A stretch of 60,798 nucleotides of DNA from Alphaproteobacteria bacterium (GCA_045565415.1 JBJLFK010000001.1:1-60798), one strand, 5' to 3'; positions 10,016 through 28,282 are shown, counted from the stretch's first letter. Translations and numbers: made by a program. The notes: a model not told the origin generated them from the sequence alone.

Positions 10016-10831
10016 ATGGTTAAAATAAATAAAAATACGGGTGAATCTTTTGTAAAAATTCTTGAAATTATGTCTGCTTTAAGGGATCCAAAAACTGGAT
10101 GCGATTGGGATAAAGATCAAGATTCTAACAGTATAAAAAGTTACTGTATTGAAGAGGCTTACGAAGTTGTTGAAGCAATAGAAAATGATGATAATAGCGC
10201 TTTATGTGAGGAATTAGGGGATTTATTATTTCAGGTTATTTTTCATACTGAAATTCATAATGAAAAAGGTAATTTCAATATTATAGATGTAATTGATAAT
10301 TTATCCGAAAAATTGATAAGAAGACATCCGCATGTATTTGAAAAAGATTCTTATACAAACTCAAAAAAACAAATTGAAAAAAATTGGGCAAATATAAAGC
10401 GACAAGAAAGAATAGATAAAGGTAATACTGGAATGCTTGATGATATACCGAAAAATTTTCCAGCAATGCTTAGATCATTAAAGTTACAAAAGAGAGCCTC
10501 CGAAAATGGTTTTGATTGGAAAAACCCCAATGAAACCTTTAAAAAAATAGAGGAAGAGAAACAAGAACTTGAAATTGCATTAATTGAGCAAGAAAATGAA
10601 GAAATAGAAGAAGAAATTGGTGATTTAATTTTCTCGGTTATAAATTTATCACGTAAACTAAAAATTGACCCTGAAAATGCATTGAGAAAAGCAAATAATA
10701 AATTCTCGGTAAGAATAAATTACATTGAAAAAGAACTTCAAAAAGAAAATAAAAAATTCAATCAAAGTAATTTAATTGAATTAGAAAGATTATGGAATCA
10801 AGCAAAAATAGATGTTAAACAGGTAAAATAG
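10016..10831 (+). CDS. mazG: Nucleoside triphosphate pyrophosphohydrolase MazG
   Basis: LRDPKTGCDWD, EEAYEV, EELGDLL, IRRHPHVF, second EEEIGDL domain. Confidence 0.95.
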   Translation: MVKINKNTGESFVKILEIMSALRDPKTGCDWDKDQDSNSIKSYCIEEAYEVVEAIENDDNSALCEELGDLLFQVIFHTEIHNEKGNFNIIDVIDNLSEKLIRRHPHVFEKDSYTNSKKQIEKNWANIKRQERIDKGNTGMLDDIPKNFPAMLRSLKLQKRASENGFDWKNPNETFKKIEEEKQELEIALIEQENEEIEEEIGDLIFSVINLSRKLKIDPENALRKANNKFSVRINYIEKELQKENKKFNQSNLIELERLWNQAKIDVKQVK

Positions 10832-11033
10832 TTGAAACTGCGTGCTTATAGACTAACTGGATATTATTTGAACCTTTTAATGTTAGAGTATTAGCATCGG
10901 AAGAACTGATGGTGCCTTCAAGTTTGATACCGCTAATTAGAAAAATTGTAACCAACTTATTATGAGATATTAAATCCTTGATGAAGCTTTCTTCATCTAA
11001 TTCTGTCATGTGTTCTTTAGTAGTGTCCAACAT
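10815..11033 (-). CDS. hfq: Hfq/Sm-fold protein, divergent
   Basis: 72 aa; VTIFLISGIKLEG (Sm1) and QLVYKHAVSTILP (Sm2); canonical position after trkA; start may be 11009. Confidence 0.88.
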   Translation of the reverse strand: MLDTTKEHMTELDEESFIKDLISHNKLVTIFLISGIKLEGTISSSDANTLTLKGSNNIQLVYKHAVSTILPV

Positions 11034-11106
11034 AAATAATATATACCTTGAGCTAATATTTTTATAAAATTAATAATATAAATTAAAATTATTTATATCT
11101 TAAATA

Positions 11107-12483
11107 TTAATAATAACTGGCACTTACTCTAAATAACTGTTCAACTTCGTGAATTTTCTCAGGAATAGAAAAAATTGTCACATAATCACCTTCTTTTATT
11201 TTTGTGTCACCTCTTGGCATAATTATTTTTTTATCTCTTAAAATTCCGCCAATTCTTAAACCATTTTCCAAATGAAGCTCCTCTATTGTAGGGCCAACTA
11301 ATTCGGATGATGATGAAACCTCACCTTCAATTACCTCTGCGGACCCATCTGATAAAGTATATATATTTCTGATATGCCCCCTTCTAACATGCCTTAAAAT
11401 AGACGATACAGTTATAGCTTTAGGATCTAAAAAATCACCTATATCTACTGATCTTATAAGACCTTGAAAATCCTTATTATTTAGAAGTGCTATAACCCTA
11501 TTACAGCCATCACTTTTTGCAAATGCAGCAGAAATAAAGTTGGTTTCATCGCTGTTTGTTAAGCTTATTAAAATGTCTGCATTCGATATTTCAGCTTCAT
11601 TTAAAATATCTTTATCCATTCCCGACCCAAGTATAACAAAGCTTTTATTAAATTTATCTGATAGATCTTCTGCAATTTTTTTATCTTGTTCAATTATACG
11701 AAGAGATATGTTATCAATTTTATTTTCTATTAATTTTCCAACTTCTTTACCAATTGAACCACCGCCAACTAAAACTATCCTTCTTGCTTGTTCAACTTTA
11801 TAACCAAAAATTGATAGAGTCCTAGCAGCAAAATCACTTGGACAAATTAGATATGCTAGATCATTTTCCAATAATTTATCGTTAAATTTTGGAGTAATTA
11901 TATAGTCATTTCTTCTTAGGCCAACTATGACTGTATTTAAGTCAGGAAATAATTCAGTTAATGAACCTATCTCAGTATTTTTTATTGGACAATCCTCATT
12001 TATCTTTACACCTAAAAATCTTAAATTATTATCTCCAAATGGAACATTTTCAAAGGCTCCTGGTAACTCAAATCTTCTAAAAACCGATTTAGCAACTTCT
12101 TTTTCAGGAGATATTATTATATTCACTGGTAAATTAGAGCTTGTAAATAAATCTTGATAAGAAGGATTCAAATAAGACTTATCCCTTACTCTTGCTATTC
12201 TTTTAGGAACCTCAAATAGAGAATGTGCAACTTGACAAGCCATCATATTTATTTCATCAGAAGGAGTTACTGAAATTAACATTTCAGCTTCTGAAGCTCC
12301 AGCTTCACCTAAAATATCTGGATGAGCCCCATGACCTACAATTCCTCTAATATCAAGTTTGTTACCAAGCTTTTCAATTAATCTTTTTGAAGAGTCAATA
12401 ATAGTTACTTCATTGCCAATTTGAGATAATTTTTCAGCAATAGCCCTTCCACTTAACCCAGCACCACAAATAATGATCTTCAT
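11107..12483 (-). CDS. trkA: Trk potassium uptake regulatory subunit TrkA
   Basis: 458 aa; two RCK-N Rossmann motifs (IIICGAGLSG, VLVGGGSIG), DEINMMACQVAHSLF. Confidence 0.93.
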   Translation of the reverse strand: MKIIICGAGLSGRAIAEKLSQIGNEVTIIDSSKRLIEKLGNKLDIRGIVGHGAHPDILGEAGASEAEMLISVTPSDEINMMACQVAHSLFEVPKRIARVRDKSYLNPSYQDLFTSSNLPVNIIISPEKEVAKSVFRRFELPGAFENVPFGDNNLRFLGVKINEDCPIKNTEIGSLTELFPDLNTVIVGLRRNDYIITPKFNDKLLENDLAYLICPSDFAARTLSIFGYKVEQARRIVLVGGGSIGKEVGKLIENKIDNISLRIIEQDKKIAEDLSDKFNKSFVILGSGMDKDILNEAEISNADILISLTNSDETNFISAAFAKSDGCNRVIALLNNKDFQGLIRSVDIGDFLDPKAITVSSILRHVRRGHIRNIYTLSDGSAEVIEGEVSSSSELVGPTIEELHLENGLRIGGILRDKKIIMPRGDTKIKEGDYVTIFSIPEKIHEVEQLFRVSASYY

Positions 12484-12505
12484 TTATTTTCCAATTATGT
12501 GTTTA

Positions 12506-12721
12506 TTATTTACTAATTAAACTTTGCAATTTTTTCTTAGGCCCAATATTTAGATCATTTAACTTTCTATGCAATGCTGATCTATCCATACCTATAAATT
12601 TAGCTGTTTTACTTATATTTCCATTAAAATTATTAATTTGAGCTGTTAAATATTTTTTTTCAAAATCAGCTCTTGCAGATCTTAAATCCATTTCTAAATC
12701 TATAACAAGGAATTTATCCAA
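12506..12721 (-). CDS. Stand-alone Fis-type HTH protein corresponding to the NtrX C-terminal DNA-binding domain
   Basis: 71 aa; [42 protein letters not shown] matches the NtrX C-terminus; TTG start preceded by AAGGAGAGG; in-frame stops upstream; lies where ntrX normally precedes trkA. Confidence 0.8.
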
Positions 12722-12786
12722 AATACCTCTCCTTAAGAATATGTTGCTTCAATACAACAAAAATTAATAGTTGTCACTAATTTCAT

Positions 12787-14319
12787 TTATGAATCAATTT
12801 TAGGAAAAATAATTTGAGGTTCCTTAATCTCCAATCCTGATTTAAGAGCAAAACTAGGGTTTAAGTTATTAAAAGATCTTTCTTTTGAATCAACATTAAG
12901 AAAATCTAAAAGCTTATTAGAGCCTTCAACAATAACGGGTTGTAATAATATTGAAGTAACGCGAAGTATCTCACAAGTAACCCATAAAACAGTATGCATT
13001 CTATCGGTATTATCTTTCTCAAGTTCCCACGGTTTTTGATTGCTAAAATATTTATTTGTTGAGGAAATAATATCAAAAATAGAACTTAAATAAGCATGAA
13101 TCTGATAATCATCCATACTTTTAAGAGATTTTTGGTACAGGCTATATGCATTATCCAATAAAGATAAATCAATGTTATTAAGATCACCTTTATTAGGTAT
13201 TTTTGCATTGCATTTTGAAAATATCATCTTAAGGCATCTTTGAGACAAGTTCCCTAAATCATTTGATAGCAATGCATTGGAATGATTCGTGATAAGTTCA
13301 TGACTATAATTACCATCATTACCAAATGGTGTAGCTGAAAGTAGGTAAAATCTTAATTGATCAACCCCATATAGATCTAATAATTCGATAGGATCAACAG
13401 TATTTCCAACACTTTTAGATATTTTCTCACCCTTATTAAGAAGAAAACCATGAGAAAAAATCATTTTAGGAACTTCAAGCCCAGCTGAAAAAAGAAATGC
13501 AGGCCAATATACTGCATGAAATCTAGTAATGTCTTTTCCAATAAGGTGAATATCAGCAGGCCAATATCTATCAAAAGGTTTACTTCCTTCACACCAATCA
13601 AGCGCAGAAATATAATTAGTTAACGCATCAAGCCATACATAAATGGAGTGTTCATTATTCTCTTCAACTGGAATTCCCCAAGAAATATTTTTTCTTGAAA
13701 TAGAAATATCCTTAAGACCGGATTGAACAAAATTTTTTATTTCATTCATTCTCGAATTTGGAAGTATAAAACTCTTATTTCTTTCATAAAGATCTAATAA
13801 TTGTTTTTCATATTTGGATAATTTAAAAAAATAACTCTCTTCATCAATCCACTCAACAGGATTACCATTAGGTGACAAATATGAATCATTATCAGACTTT
13901 AGCAATTCTTCTTCGTTATAAAATGCCTCATCCCTTATTGAATACCATCCAGAATATTGATCGAGATAAATATCCCCTTTATCAGAAAGATTCTTCCAAA
14001 TTGAATGGACATTTTTTTTATGTCTATCATCAGTTGTTCTTATAAAATCATTATTTGAACAATTTAAAGATTTAGCTAATTCAATAAATTCTTTTGATAC
14101 TTTATCAACATAGTCTTTAGGGTTAATACCTAATTCTTTTGCCTTTTGTTGAACCTTTAGACCATGTTCATCGGTTCCAGTTAAAAAGAAGACATCATAA
14201 CCATCCAATCTTTTAAACCTTGCAATTGCATCAGCGGCTATTACCTCATAAGCATGACCTATGTGAGGAGAGCCATTAGTATAAGATATTGCAGTGCTAA
14301 TATAGAATGAATCAGTCAT
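12787..14319 (-). CDS. metG: Methionyl-tRNA synthetase (short form)
   Basis: YTNGSPHIGHAY (HIGH), TGTDEHG, YVWLDAL, KISKS. Confidence 0.96.
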   Translation of the reverse strand: MTDSFYISTAISYTNGSPHIGHAYEVIAADAIARFKRLDGYDVFFLTGTDEHGLKVQQKAKELGINPKDYVDKVSKEFIELAKSLNCSNNDFIRTTDDRHKKNVHSIWKNLSDKGDIYLDQYSGWYSIRDEAFYNEEELLKSDNDSYLSPNGNPVEWIDEESYFFKLSKYEKQLLDLYERNKSFILPNSRMNEIKNFVQSGLKDISISRKNISWGIPVEENNEHSIYVWLDALTNYISALDWCEGSKPFDRYWPADIHLIGKDITRFHAVYWPAFLFSAGLEVPKMIFSHGFLLNKGEKISKSVGNTVDPIELLDLYGVDQLRFYLLSATPFGNDGNYSHELITNHSNALLSNDLGNLSQRCLKMIFSKCNAKIPNKGDLNNIDLSLLDNAYSLYQKSLKSMDDYQIHAYLSSIFDIISSTNKYFSNQKPWELEKDNTDRMHTVLWVTCEILRVTSILLQPVIVEGSNKLLDFLNVDSKERSFNNLNPSFALKSGLEIKEPQIIFPKIDS

Positions 14320-24520: not shown

Positions 24521-25957
24521 CTAGTTGCTTTCTTGATCTATGTTAATATTAAGTTCAGTAATTTTTTTTCTCAATGTATTTCTATTTAAACCTAATAACT
24601 CAGATGCTTTCAATTGATTTCCATTCTTATTTTTTAGAACCTCCAAAAGTAAAACCTTTTCAAGCTCAGTAACAAAATAGTTATATACATCGCCCTGATA
24701 CTCTTTGTTAATTTTATTTATATTTCTTGAAAGATAATTTTCTAAAATTTTAGAAAATTGATTTTCACTATCTAACATTTGCTGATCAATCTTTTGAAGA
24801 TTTTTTATCTCTTCGGTGAGATCTTCATTCATTATACTTTCATCTGTATAAAGAGCACATAATTTTAGAATAAAATTTTCAAGCTCTCTAACATTACCGG
24901 GCCATTGATATTTCTCTAAAATTTGAAAAGATTCAGTAGTAAATTTTTTTGGCTCAAGTTTAAGATCCTTTGCTTTATCTAAAAAATGATTAACTAATTC
25001 TGGAATATCTTCTTTTCTCTCTCTGAGCGGAGGTATGCTAATTGGAACTACATTGAGTCTATAAAATAAATCTTCTCTAAATTCACCTTTCTCAATAAGA
25101 TTGGAAAGATTCTTATGAGTTGCAGCTATAATTCTTGTATCTGCTTGAATTTTTTCTTTCCCTCCAATTGGTGTAAACTCACCCTCCTGCAAAACCCTTA
25201 ACAGCCTCGTTTGAGCATCTATAGGCATATCACCAATTTCATCTAAAAATAGCGTTCCTTTTTCGGCTAATTTAAATTTACCATCACTTTTTTGATGAGC
25301 ACCTGTAAAAGATCCTTTTTCATGTCCAAAAAGTTCACTTTCAATCAAATCATTAGGAATGGCAGCCATGTTGAGAGCTATGAAAGGCTTTTCTGATCTT
25401 GTGCTATATTTATGCAAGGCTTTAGCTACCAATTCCTTTCCTGTTCCACTCTCGCCATAAATCATAACAGTAAGATCATTTTGTGATAATCTTGCTATAG
25501 ATTTGTATAAATCTTGCATAGCAGTTGATCTGCCAACAATAAGCTGTTTTTCAGACTTATTTTTTATTTTTGTTTTGTTTTTAAAATTTTTTTTACTTTC
25601 TAGTGCTTTCTTGATCAGCTTTTGAAGCTCATCCAAATCAAATGGTTTAGGCAAGTATTCATAAGCTCCTTGCTTTGTTGCAGAAATTGCTGTTTGTAAA
25701 TTATTTTTCGCACTAACCACAATTACAGGTAGGTTTTCTCTATATTCTACTATTTGAGGTAAAATATCAAAAAGCTCGCCATCAGGAAGCATCACATCAG
25801 TAATCAGGACATCCCCCTTATTACTTTCGATTAATTTCCATAACTCTTTAAGGTTAGATGCCATAAAAATCTCATAGCCCAAGTCTTGAAGGTATCTAGA
25901 AGTGACCAATCTAATAGACTCGTCATCCTCAGCTATTATTAAAGTTTTGTTACTCAT
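24521..25957 (-). CDS. ntrC: Nitrogen regulation protein NtrC
   Basis: Receiver (EDD, TDVMLP, KPFD), AAA+ GESGTGKE, ESELFGHEKGSFTGA, WPGNVRELEN, HTH LGLNRNTLRKK. Confidence 0.95.
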   Translation of the reverse strand: MSNKTLIIAEDDESIRLVTSRYLQDLGYEIFMASNLKELWKLIESNKGDVLITDVMLPDGELFDILPQIVEYRENLPVIVVSAKNNLQTAISATKQGAYEYLPKPFDLDELQKLIKKALESKKNFKNKTKIKNKSEKQLIVGRSTAMQDLYKSIARLSQNDLTVMIYGESGTGKELVAKALHKYSTRSEKPFIALNMAAIPNDLIESELFGHEKGSFTGAHQKSDGKFKLAEKGTLFLDEIGDMPIDAQTRLLRVLQEGEFTPIGGKEKIQADTRIIAATHKNLSNLIEKGEFREDLFYRLNVVPISIPPLRERKEDIPELVNHFLDKAKDLKLEPKKFTTESFQILEKYQWPGNVRELENFILKLCALYTDESIMNEDLTEEIKNLQKIDQQMLDSENQFSKILENYLSRNINKINKEYQGDVYNYFVTELEKVLLLEVLKNKNGNQLKASELLGLNRNTLRKKITELNINIDQESN

Positions 25958-25958
25958 A

Positions 25959-27044
25959 TTATAACTCCGACATTAATCTAATAATAAATTTTGTTCCTTG
26001 ATCAGTTAAATCAAGCTCAATAGATCCATTATGATCGCTAACAATTTTAGAAACTATTGATAACCCAAGCCCTCCTTGACCAATTTTCTTAGTGCTTACA
26101 AATGGTTGAAAAATTTCTTGTGATATTGAGGCTGGAATACCAGGCCCATTATCCATCACAGAAATTTTAATTGGTAATTTTACTTTTTCTTCACTTAATT
26201 TTTCTTTAACAATGAATCCATGCTCATAATTAGTTGATAAGATAATTTCATTATCAGAATCTGATTCATTGCTAAATGCCTCTATTGAGTTTTTAATAAG
26301 ATTAATAAATACTTGAATCAATTGATCTTCATTACCAATAACATCTGGAATTGAAGGATCAAATGCTTCTGTTATTTTTATTTTCTTTTCACTTGAATTA
26401 ATCATAACATCTTTAACATGTCGTAAAATTGAATGAATATTAATTGGCTTTAAATCGATAGGAATTGATGCATCAAAAACTTGAAGGTTATCTACCAGTC
26501 TTTTAATTCTATCTACTTCATTTATTATAAGATCAGTCATAACAATTTCATTATTTTCAATATTCTTCTCTAAAATCTGTGCAGCTCCCCTAATACCAGC
26601 CAGAGGGTTTTTAACTTCATGCGCAAGAATTTGAGACATATTTGACATTGCTATTTTATTTTTCTGATTTTCATTTTGAAATATTAATTTTTTTTCATTA
26701 AAACCCTCTATTAAAATAATTTGATAGTAGTTATCTGACCCTATTACTGGAGTCACCTCAACATCTACATCCTTATGAGAGCCAGAAATTGGAGTTGATA
26801 AATCAATTCTATATTCTTTAAAAGTTGAGTCTGTATTAAGAGCATTATCTATCAAAGATAAAATTGGAGATGAAAAAGGAAGAATACTTTCGATCGATTT
26901 TTCTAACAGCACTTTAGAGCTTAAATTAAAAAAGTCTTCGGCAGCTGAATTAATCATATTTATAATCTTATTTTTATTAATTATAATAATTGGAAAGGTA
27001 ATTGAATTTATGACTTGCTTATGTATATTAGTATCGTTAATCAT
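25959..27044 (-). CDS. ntrB: Nitrogen regulation sensor kinase NtrB
   Basis: PAS-like N-terminus, LAHEVKNPLAGIRGAAQ H-box, DNGPGIP, GLGL. Confidence 0.93.
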   Translation of the reverse strand: MINDTNIHKQVINSITFPIIIINKNKIINMINSAAEDFFNLSSKVLLEKSIESILPFSSPILSLIDNALNTDSTFKEYRIDLSTPISGSHKDVDVEVTPVIGSDNYYQIILIEGFNEKKLIFQNENQKNKIAMSNMSQILAHEVKNPLAGIRGAAQILEKNIENNEIVMTDLIINEVDRIKRLVDNLQVFDASIPIDLKPINIHSILRHVKDVMINSSEKKIKITEAFDPSIPDVIGNEDQLIQVFINLIKNSIEAFSNESDSDNEIILSTNYEHGFIVKEKLSEEKVKLPIKISVMDNGPGIPASISQEIFQPFVSTKKIGQGGLGLSIVSKIVSDHNGSIELDLTDQGTKFIIRLMSEL

Positions 27045-27050
27045 TATAAT

Positions 27051-27095
27051 TGCCTAATTTTTAAGCATTTATATATTATGCCTAATAATTAGGCA
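27051..27095. promoter_or_regulatory. Two tandem NtrC-type boxes (TGC-N11-GCA)
   Basis: TGCCTAATTTTTAAGCA (27051-27067) and palindromic TGCCTAATAATTAGGCA (27079-27095) immediately upstream of ntrB. Confidence 0.75.
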
Positions 27096-27118
27096 AATTA
27101 TGTTTCTAAAAAAAGTAT

Positions 27119-28282
27119 ATGATACATTTTATTATATTAGCTGCAGGAAAAAGCGAACGTTTCAAAAAGAAAAAGAGTAAATTTTCTAAACAATTTTTCA
27201 AAGTTAATGGAATTTCACCTCTAGAGCATTTGATGACATCAGTCTCAAATAACCCCTTAATAAACTCAATTACTTTGGTTGTAAATAAGGATGATAAATC
27301 AGAAATAGCGGGCTTTAAAAAAAAATACCATAAGTTGAATAGTATCATTAACGGCGGCATCACTCGTCAACAATCAGCTTTCATAGCCCTTAAAAGTATT
27401 CGTAAAAAAAGAGAAAAAACTAAAAATGATATAGTCTTAATTCATGATGCTGCTAGGCCATTTTTAGAAAATCAAATTATTAAAAATTGTATTTCTCAGT
27501 TAAAAAAATATGATGGAGTTTTTCCTGCTTTGAATATGGATGATACTCTTAGAAACAATAAAAACTTAAATACTTATGATAGAAACACTATTATTAGCTC
27601 ACAAACACCTCAAGCATTCAAATTTGATAAAATTTATATGGCTTATCAGAAAATTAAAGGAAACTATTCTGATGATGTTGCTATTGCAAGTGAGTTTGGA
27701 TTAAGAATAAAAAAAATCGAAGGACAAAAGTTGAATTTTAAGATAACAAATCCTTCAGACATTGAAATATATGAAAAGCTAATAGATCAATATTATAGAA
27801 ACAGAATCGGAAATGGGTTTGATTTTCATAAATTTAAAAAAGGAAAATCAATCAAAATTGGTGGTTTAAAAATTAAAAGTAAGTTTTCGTTAGAAGCTAA
27901 TTCTGACGGAGATCCTATTTTGCACTCGATTACTGATGCTATCCTAGGGGCATTGAATGAAAAAGATATTGGTTTTCACTTTGAACCAGATAATAAGAGT
28001 TATAAAAATGCAAATTCAATTATTTTTATCAATAGGGCTCTTCTACTGCTTATGGACAAAAAAGGTGAAATTATTAATTTGGACTTAAATATTATATGTG
28101 ATTATCCAAAAATTAACCCAATTAGAAATAAGATTAGAAAAAATCTCTCAAAAATTCTGAAAATTAATGAAGATATTATTAATATTAAGGCCTCCTCAAC
28201 TGAGGATGAAGGGTTTGTTAATACAAAAAAAGGAATAGCTTGCCAAACCGTTATTTCACTCAGGGTATTTAATTATGATTAA
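27119..28282 (+). CDS. ispDF: Bifunctional IspD/IspF (MEP pathway)
   Basis: LAAGKSERF, TRQQS, IHDAARPF, QTPQAF, NFKIT then RIGNGFDFH, SDGD..LHSITDAILGA..DIG. Confidence 0.93.
   Translation: MIHFIILAAGKSERFKKKKSKFSKQFFKVNGISPLEHLMTSVSNNPLINSITLVVNKDDKSEIAGFKKKYHKLNSIINGGITRQQSAFIALKSIRKKREKTKNDIVLIHDAARPFLENQIIKNCISQLKKYDGVFPALNMDDTLRNNKNLNTYDRNTIISSQTPQAFKFDKIYMAYQKIKGNYSDDVAIASEFGLRIKKIEGQKLNFKITNPSDIEIYEKLIDQYYRNRIGNGFDFHKFKKGKSIKIGGLKIKSKFSLEANSDGDPILHSITDAILGALNEKDIGFHFEPDNKSYKNANSIIFINRALLLLMDKKGEIINLDLNIICDYPKINPIRNKIRKNLSKILKINEDIINIKASSTEDEGFVNTKKGIACQTVISLRVFNYD

Follow-up and report, generated by a model that had tools for sequence, protein, structure and literature searches.

A 60,798-nt stretch of DNA from an alphaproteobacterium (GCA_045565415.1, JBJLFK010000001.1:1-60798; referred to below as the window) raises the question of whether a 71-residue open reading frame (ORF) between metG and trkA is a working gene, from which parent it came and what it might regulate. 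The source genome (G000, 80% complete) is that of a small-genome marine alphaproteobacterium. The gene, here called mini-ntrX, lies at 12506..12721 on the minus strand, starts with TTG inside an 80-codon open frame of the ORF list, and encodes an invariant N-terminal segment (residues 1–14), a long helix (about residues 13–31), the two helices of a helix-turn-helix (HTH) motif (residues 36–43 and 47–56) and a variable tail (residues 60–71). An initial inspection of the DNA, the sequence-only reading, had described it as the DNA-binding end of NtrX standing alone and as a possible independent origin of a Fis-like protein. On balance we favour, though not strongly, a functional, domain-minimised descendant of ntrX that would have arisen by deletion and would control a set of genes marked by a palindrome.

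NtrX parentage and conservation of the short gene

The match of the protein to the NtrX model is confined to the last 48 positions, in agreement with the sequence-only reading. Its top NCBIfam match is the NtrX equivalog NF051870 (positions 404–451 of 452, E 8.5e-20; the next family follows at E 4.9e-05), with a score of 71 bits, below the curated cut-off of 600 that is set for the whole protein. Pfam HTH_8 (PF02954) is recognised at residues 17–55 with 43.7 bits (gathering threshold 22). Neither Response_reg, the phospho-acceptor receiver expected of an NtrX, nor AAA+/Sigma54_activat gave a Pfam match in the 71 residues. Among solved structures the best match is NtrX of Brucella abortus (5m7n, residues 405–453, E 1.9e-15), in which the recognition helix RSALHRKL is the same, and the C-terminal 48 residues are about 65–70% identical to NtrX. 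Judged by these model scores, mini-NtrX is an HTH_8 protein of NtrX descent. Membership of the Fis family is ruled out by the Fis models NF001659 and NF002517 (17.0 and 17.9 bits, against cut-offs of 99 and 122) and by the gene upstream, which is metG and not the dusB of the dusB-fis context. The proposed Fis-like origin thus holds for the fold and for the kind of origin, not for the family.

Homologues were searched in 41 related genomes. The order is represented by one family with three genera (g1–g3) and 25 genomes, and corresponds, going by how the matching public contigs are titled (OCS116 cluster, PS1 clade, Rhodobiaceae metagenome-assembled genome or MED-G09), to the OCS116/PS1 clade. 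Full-length matches within the own family are short open frames of 72–97 aa; the top match in each of the class's 16 further families forms the end of a 455–581 aa frame, which is a full NtrX. The short form is present in 22 of the 25 genomes of the order (E ≤ 1e-8) and was not found in G007, G018 and G024, with completeness of 82, 83 and 61%, respectively. At 20 loci the order metG, mini-ntrX, trkA could be followed, with trkA in place at all of them and metG at 19 (the 20th stops at a contig end). The amino-acid identity to the window proteins across these loci is 64–100% for mini-NtrX, 63–97% for TrkA and 60–93% for MetG. The start codon holds the same position in 20 of 20 (TTG in two genera, ATG in the third), with the nearest upstream in-frame stop varying from 1 to 26 codons away, and no frameshift or stop was found in mini-ntrX among the 20 loci.

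The dN/dS ratios (Nei-Gojobori, codons 2–67) have medians of 0.064 in g1 (55 pairs), 0.029 in g2 (21 pairs) and 0.119 in g3 (1 pair), with synonymous sites close to saturation between species. In an alignment of 26 database homologues D2–L9 and most HTH residues are invariant, in contrast to the C-terminal tail, whose basic character, which the ORF itself does show and to which the sequence-only reading had drawn attention, is not kept between genera. The other expectations of that reading, a conserved form of ~70 aa upstream of trkA and purifying selection on it, are borne out, and the short form extends over the order instead of being a unique fragment beside a full-length ntrX in close relatives. 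It is very probable that mini-ntrX encodes a functional stand-alone protein derived from NtrX.

A search of 1.84 billion proteins returned short matches that start in the middle of the query, look like fragments of full NtrX and are without the initial DKFLVIDL. Stand-alone forms may occur in lineages outside the order. One 87-aa database protein (P0078) contains two tandem NtrX-type C-terminal HTH units and may be a chimeric assembly or a real duplication.

Loss of ntrY and full-length ntrX, and the origin of the short form

The NtrX model found no protein above its 600-bit cut-off in any of the 25 genomes of the order; the matches of 324–356 bits are the NtrC gene. For G000 itself the best match is a 478-aa NtrC-like gene at 24521-25957 (350 bits), and the genome has no match to NtrY_N of Pfam. 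Among the 25 genomes NtrY_N was found once, on contig C34 of G022 (L051/L161), the only ntrY-ntrX-trkA contig of the order (NtrX 541 bits, 26.5% G+C). Its trkA is just 41% identical to that of the window, and the contig runs collinear with loci of Pelagibacteraceae, with about 68% identical nucleotides. G022, with a contamination rating of 3%, also has the short form, on a different contig, and C34 is probably a SAR11-like, mis-binned sequence. The collapse of NtrYX to a stand-alone C-terminal domain of NtrX, as first proposed, agrees with this genome-wide absence and with the place in which the short gene is found.

That place can be judged from an outgroup set of 17 ntrX loci. Of these, 16 have an ntrY-like kinase gene immediately before ntrX, 11 have trkA adjoining ntrX, and several keep the whole order dusB-ntrB-ntrC-ntrY-ntrX-trkA; mini-ntrX thus occupies the place of the 3' end of ntrX. 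The window retains intact ntrB (25959-27044) and ntrC (24521-25957), both on the minus strand and complete in Pfam domains, about 11.8 kb upstream of mini-ntrX, and the spacing is alike in relatives. In the ancestral ntrBC-ntrYX cluster this pair made up the other half. The loop of the window NtrC reads GSFTGA instead of GAFTGA, and rpoN is present in three of three genomes checked. Between ntrB-ntrC and a divergent ispDF gene dusB is missing (24521-28282), with a spacer of 75 nt.

The manner in which ntrX was shortened may be read from the N-terminal residues of mini-NtrX. In a HMMER alignment residues 4–16 pair with residues 6–18 of Brucella NtrX (first receiver strand), a match that alone is not significant. 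A position-specific scoring matrix (PSSM) of 13 columns, built from the N-termini of outgroup NtrX proteins (xDILIVDDExDIR), gives 12.1–12.3 bits on residues 2–14, rank 1 of 1993 ORF N-termini in the genome; on genuine response regulators it gives 9.6 and 0.4 bits, and on NtrC -3.0. Relative to 200,000 random 13-mers of the proteome, the score corresponds to p = 5e-6, or to 2.5e-5 without the L/I-R anchor (the two columns common to the receiver N-terminus and the C-terminal domain). A matrix of the 13 linker residues before the C-terminal helix, from the same proteins, yields p = 0.07, and 0.59 without the anchor. In the receiver-like stretch Leu takes the place of the second Asp in the DD pair, and the initial Met stands the usual 2–3 residues ahead of the strand, like in true NtrX.

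The likeness to the first receiver strand suggests an in-frame internal deletion and not a 5' truncation, and loss of roughly codons 15–404 with the native start kept is, from the comparison of sequences, the probable course of events. In the ancestor of the order ntrX would have shrunk at its site just ahead of trkA to a gene for 70–72 aa, with the dimerisation helix of the Fis/NtrC type and the HTH as the only domain parts retained. The deletion would have brought its first ~14 codons (β1 and the start of α1, ...VDDExD(I/L)R) up against helix one of the C-terminal domain (...(L)R(E/S)AR...). By whichever route, ntrY would have been lost separately or in the same rearrangement. The initial statement that the locus holds no remnant of ntrY, receiver or AAA+ can be kept for ntrY and AAA+, and is doubtful for the receiver, given residues 2–14.

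Several observations weigh against a deletion. The receiver match extends over just 13 residues, has decayed in g3 (-4 to -5 bits) and is weaker against SAR11-dominated models, and linkers of SAR11-type NtrX also resemble the N-terminus of mini-NtrX when one gap is allowed. The last of these speaks for a plain 5' truncation, in which a new start codon was recruited within the linker and the receiver likeness is due to chance or convergence: linkers such as ...DKFSITDNLSVPLREAR align with one gap (best score 1.8–4.5 bits without the anchor, p = 0.005–0.014), and tblastn alignments to Pelagibacteraceae reach query residue 2. The ungapped linker models, however, give p = 0.07–0.17 (0.3–0.7 without the anchor), far from the value of the receiver model; the linker is, moreover, highly variable between lineages, and the position of the Met is that of true NtrX. 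A truncation is in our estimate rather unlikely, and the internal deletion remains the preferred origin.

Predicted dimer, candidate operator and rival functions

The AlphaFold2 monomer model, built with a 26-row alignment, has a mean predicted local distance difference test (pLDDT) score of 80.2 and consists of a long helix (residues 2–31), the two HTH helices and an ill-defined tail. Foldseek ranked NtrX first (root-mean-square deviation, rmsd, 0.5 Å over 45 residues, 71% identity), the DNA-binding domain of NtrC4 second, including its DNA complex, and Fis of E. coli (1ety and others) third (rmsd 1.2 Å over 48 residues, 21–26% identity). A homodimer model reached an ipSAE of 0.57 (best control 0.00), with 100% contact agreement between runs and a partner pLDDT of at least 77; the mark used is passed by 20 of 30 proteins solved as same-chain pairs and by 1 of 23 single chains. 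Since dimers of the Fis and NtrC4 type are already solved, the pass may reflect memory or likeness. The modelling against Fis that had been suggested at the outset is in this way favourable, and we infer from the model that mini-NtrX forms a homodimer. The predicted interface comprises residues 2–10, 12–14, 16–17, 20, 24, 27–28, 31 and 42–45, and the inclusion of residues 2–10 is a possible reason for the invariance of the N-terminus.

Upstream, mini-ntrX is separated by 65 nt from the stop of metG (12787..14319, minus strand; Pfam tRNA-synt_1g, 357.8 bits), which stands in the place of ntrY. A Shine-Dalgarno-like AAGGAGAGG (12726..12734, minus strand, read directly) lies 4 nt before the TTG, and going upstream from there the first in-frame stop comes at the 10th codon, so that the distances given in the sequence-only reading are reproduced. 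The strong ribosome-binding site that it had noted is real here and is confined to part of the genus: AGGAG-like forms occur in part of g1 and GGGGA/AAGAGG in g2, and the others are weak. Downstream, trkA (11107..12483, minus strand; NCBIfam TrkA, 568 bits) begins 22 nt past the stop of mini-ntrX, followed after 73 nt by hfq (10815..11033, minus strand; Pfam Hfq, 59.3 bits). The Hfq of the window (72 aa) is somewhat divergent, with 58.7 bits for TIGR02383 (cut-off 61.7) and 54.4 bits for the PRK00395 model (cut-off 95).

The metG–mini-ntrX spacer is variable overall, with the exception of two blocks that are invariant at 20 of 20 loci, TGACA and, 13 nt on, GTTGTA-N3-AAGCAAC; the spacing from TGACA to the palindrome in the second block is likewise fixed. 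In the window this imperfect palindrome is GTTGTATTGAAGCAAC (12743..12758, no strand assigned; family consensus GTTGTA-N4-WRCAAC), a candidate and putatively autoregulatory operator. Its flanking positions change together, with T...A in g1 and g3 and A...T in g2, which is a compensatory change. By our reading a promoter-like region on the minus strand is formed by GTGACA (12777-12772), a 17-nt spacer and TATTGA (12754-12749), and the latter, -10-like hexamer lies inside the palindrome.

The motif was followed beyond the locus with the extended pattern GTTGTAWWNAWRCAAC and its reversed form as a control. In G000 plain GTTG-N8-CAAC is not over-represented (9 sites, like other spacings), and its three intergenic sites all carry the extended motif, one of them as the perfect palindrome GTTGTATTAATACAAC. 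Over the order, all 25 genomes contain the extended motif, at 58 distinct sites, compared with 8 hits for the control; in five low-GC outgroup genomes the figures are 3 and 2, which is no enrichment. The sites at mini-ntrX number 22, one for each genome with the gene. The genes within 330 nt of the other 36 sites include a TonB-dependent receptor at 24, gltB at 7 and a PII-like ORF at 3; five sites lack both a TonB-receptor gene and gltB, and of these five two have the PII-like ORF only, the rest being unassigned or at contig ends. At 6 sites, each in a different genome (L063, L065, L073, L079, L080, L173), the palindrome stands between a cytochrome P450 gene (424–425 aa) and the divergent TonB-receptor gene, which suggests a co-regulated pair for uptake and oxidation. 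Better copies of the palindrome stand 40–260 nt upstream of the TonB-receptor, gltB (glutamate synthase large subunit) and P450 genes, which on the strength of this recurrence form a candidate regulon. At gltB, TTGCAW follows 6 nt after the palindrome in 5 of 7 cases, and then a TATATA-like hexamer; a palindrome that abuts a -35-like hexamer suggests an activator-like position.

None of the 36 sites away from mini-ntrX has a sigma-54-type promoter within 300 nt, and no GntR-family gene was found in three of three genomes checked. Elsewhere in G000 sigma-54-type promoters precede a PII gene, an amt operon and a further receptor gene; none of them has the palindrome in the 200 nt ahead of it. 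These promoters (TGGCAT-N5-TTGCT; C8:7737, C23:34775 and C34:5209 of G000, outside the window) are preceded by TTACACA-like repeats, which may be the NtrC sites of the clade.

For NtrX itself the available text of PMC9223101 gives sites of CAA-N3-5-TTG in Brucella, CAA-N2-5-TTG in Sinorhizobium (e.g. CAAC...GTTG) and GCA-N9-TGC in Rhodobacter, and repression of ntrY or of the own operon where the site overlaps the start site. The tetranucleotides are thus common to the published sites and to the palindrome, which differ in how their half-sites are ordered and spaced, so that the link between palindrome and protein stays an inference; that GTTGTA-N4-TACAAC is the site of mini-NtrX is, on sequence grounds, close to an even call.

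Contigs from RNA libraries give weak support to transcription of mini-ntrX. In four runs with word shares ≤0.29, contigs of two studies lie over the ORF (X3, 12571-12724 and 12368-12596; X7, 12574-12724), and the X3 contig at 12368-12596 spans the mini-ntrX/trkA junction; there is no cover by X3 and X7 at 12725-12807, which is not counted as absence. A consensus scan found no terminator-like site in 10700-13000. With the 22-nt gap and the bridging contig, this makes it plausible that mini-ntrX is co-transcribed with trkA and possibly hfq. In both studies a read-length contig stops at 12724, 3 nt ahead of the TTG; this may mark an RNA 5' end (processed or primary) or a base that varies between strains and broke the assembly.

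Without receiver and AAA+ domain mini-NtrX could not be switched by phosphorylation. It would act as a constitutive homodimeric DNA-binding regulator at sigma-70-type promoters. The overlap of the imperfect palindrome with the own -10-like element suggests autorepression of mini-ntrX-trkA(-hfq), and at gltB the action would be activator-like. Against this picture stand the modest pLDDT of 61 for residues 1–10 of the monomer model and the consensus promoter scan, which made no call at the -10-like hexamer because it demands T at position 6. The half-sites of published NtrX sites, in addition, are in the reverse order (CAA-N2-5-TTG) and closer together than those of the palindrome. Other regulators might also bind the palindrome, as only the GntR type and a sigma-54/NtrC-type architecture are excluded, and the palindrome might fold as a short RNA hairpin, lying shortly past a stop codon at three G000 sites. 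Finally, contigs of RNA libraries do not reveal depth, strand, ends or single transcripts, and may derive from DNA.

These reservations lead to a different division of roles, in which mini-NtrX is a specific regulator that keeps ancestral targets of the CAA-Nx-TTG type and the palindrome is the site of another factor or a hairpin in the transcript. The published half-sites would suit this reading, as would a hairpin of 5–6 bp just past the stop codon at several loci, and G007, G018 and G024 carry the motif with no detected mini gene, which may reflect assembly gaps only. In each of the 22 genomes with mini-ntrX the motif nevertheless stands at the promoter of the gene, with compensatory flanks; it is not enriched in the five low-GC outgroups with full NtrX, no GntR-family gene was found in the three genomes checked, no sigma-54 promoter lies near the 36 other sites, and the stem is short and AT-rich; we take this division of roles to be possible and the less probable option. 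A Fis-like nucleoid-associated protein, abundant, global, DNA-bending and of low specificity, with the palindrome belonging to another regulator or to an RNA element, would agree with the Fis-like fold, the small size, the predicted dimer and the Shine-Dalgarno sequence, which is strong in some members of the genus. Fis is autorepressed at its own promoter (available part of PMC7482072), and the Caulobacter NtrC motif is reported to be Fis-motif-like (available part of bioRxiv 10.1101/2023.06.06.543975). On the other side are the recognition helix, which is that of the site-specific NtrX, the low scores of the Fis models and the precise palindrome that every one of the 22 genomes with mini-ntrX conserves at the promoter of the gene; the depth of RNA-library contigs cannot rank expression and is silent on abundance. 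We regard a nucleoid-associated protein as improbable.

A decaying relic, with the ORF conserved merely as a promoter of trkA or for translational coupling and its protein without a role, is very improbable. The close spacing to trkA and the ntrX-trkA adjacency conserved in other alphaproteobacteria would be in line with it, but dN/dS is low, all 20 frames are intact, the identity is on a par with that of trkA and metG, and the N-terminus and most HTH residues are unchanged throughout the 26 aligned sequences.

Known regulators and the meaning of the reduction

Mini-ntrX resembles ntrX in its position directly upstream of trkA. It differs in length (71 against about 455 aa), in the absence of AAA+ and of ntrY, in a receiver reduced to at most about 13 residues, and in the half-sites of its candidate palindrome, which are in opposite order and wider apart. 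NtrX, in sources available in part, is without the GAFTGA loop and works without sigma-54. Compared with the DNA-binding domain of Aquifex NtrC4 (3E7L/4FTH; 35% identity, E 1.5e-06), mini-NtrX is the same three-helix dimeric domain; the NtrC4 domain was solved bound to DNA, and DNA binding by mini-NtrX is presumed. The NtrC4 structures are of laboratory fragments of full-length activators, whereas mini-ntrX is a natural gene.

With Fis of gamma- and betaproteobacteria mini-NtrX shares the small size and the long helix followed by HTH_8, and the homodimer as a prediction. It differs in its descent from NtrX and not NtrC and in having no dusB upstream. The N-terminal β-hairpin arm with which Fis activates invertases would correspond to a part of mini-NtrX that is modelled at low confidence (pLDDT 61). 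In mechanism Fis and the isolated DNA-binding domains of NtrC-type activators are the closest counterparts of mini-NtrX. Fis reportedly goes back to the C-terminal domain of a regulator of the NtrC type (Morett and Bork 1998). A full, independent and datable replay of the birth of Fis, in which the deletion made a phosphorylation-controlled NtrX blind to signals, the receiver strand became a dimer arm and the altered dimer geometry re-targeted the unchanged helix from CAA-Nx-TTG to GTTGTA-N4-TACAAC, with gltB, TonB uptake and trkA-hfq governed over the whole clade, is an unlikely extension of our reading.

A parallel was observed in four other small alphaproteobacterial genomes, G026 (L049:4964-5293), G029 (L037:2361-3637), G036 (L047:2224-3556) and G039 (L044:7611-7907), in which an HTH_8 gene of 97–109 aa replaces ntrB-ntrC directly before ntrY-ntrX; at L037 and L047 the gene before it is dusB (Dus, about 345–350 bits). 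These genes score 52–70 bits with the Fis models (below the cut-offs) and 46–53 bits with the NtrC C-terminus. Here, as for mini-ntrX, a regulator in small genomes would have collapsed to an HTH_8 protein, in this case the NtrB/NtrC pair, or else a dusB-fis may have been acquired; unlike mini-ntrX, these genes are NtrC/Fis-related and the full ntrY-ntrX is kept. A dusB-fis-like arrangement within an alphaproteobacterial ntr cluster is relevant to the proposal that Fis came from NtrC.

A literature search, to which subscription journals and supplements were closed, returned neither a truncated NtrX nor work on regulation in the OCS116/PS1 clade. The receiver-like N-terminus, its predicted role in the interface and the palindrome recurring at the own promoter-like region are new. 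SAR11 keeps NtrY/NtrX and is without NtrB/NtrC and PII, according to the available text of PMC3870248. The OCS116/PS1 clade reverses this pattern, with NtrB/NtrC, PII and sigma-54 kept, NtrY dropped and NtrX cut to its DNA-binding end, and the two offer a natural experiment on how regulators are minimised as genomes shrink. With mini-ntrX the route proposed for Fis would have been taken a second time, independently, and here the parent gene, the site and perhaps the junction can still be recognised. For a clade of marine bacterioplankton it also predicts a small regulon, consisting of gltB, TonB receptors, P450 and trkA-hfq.

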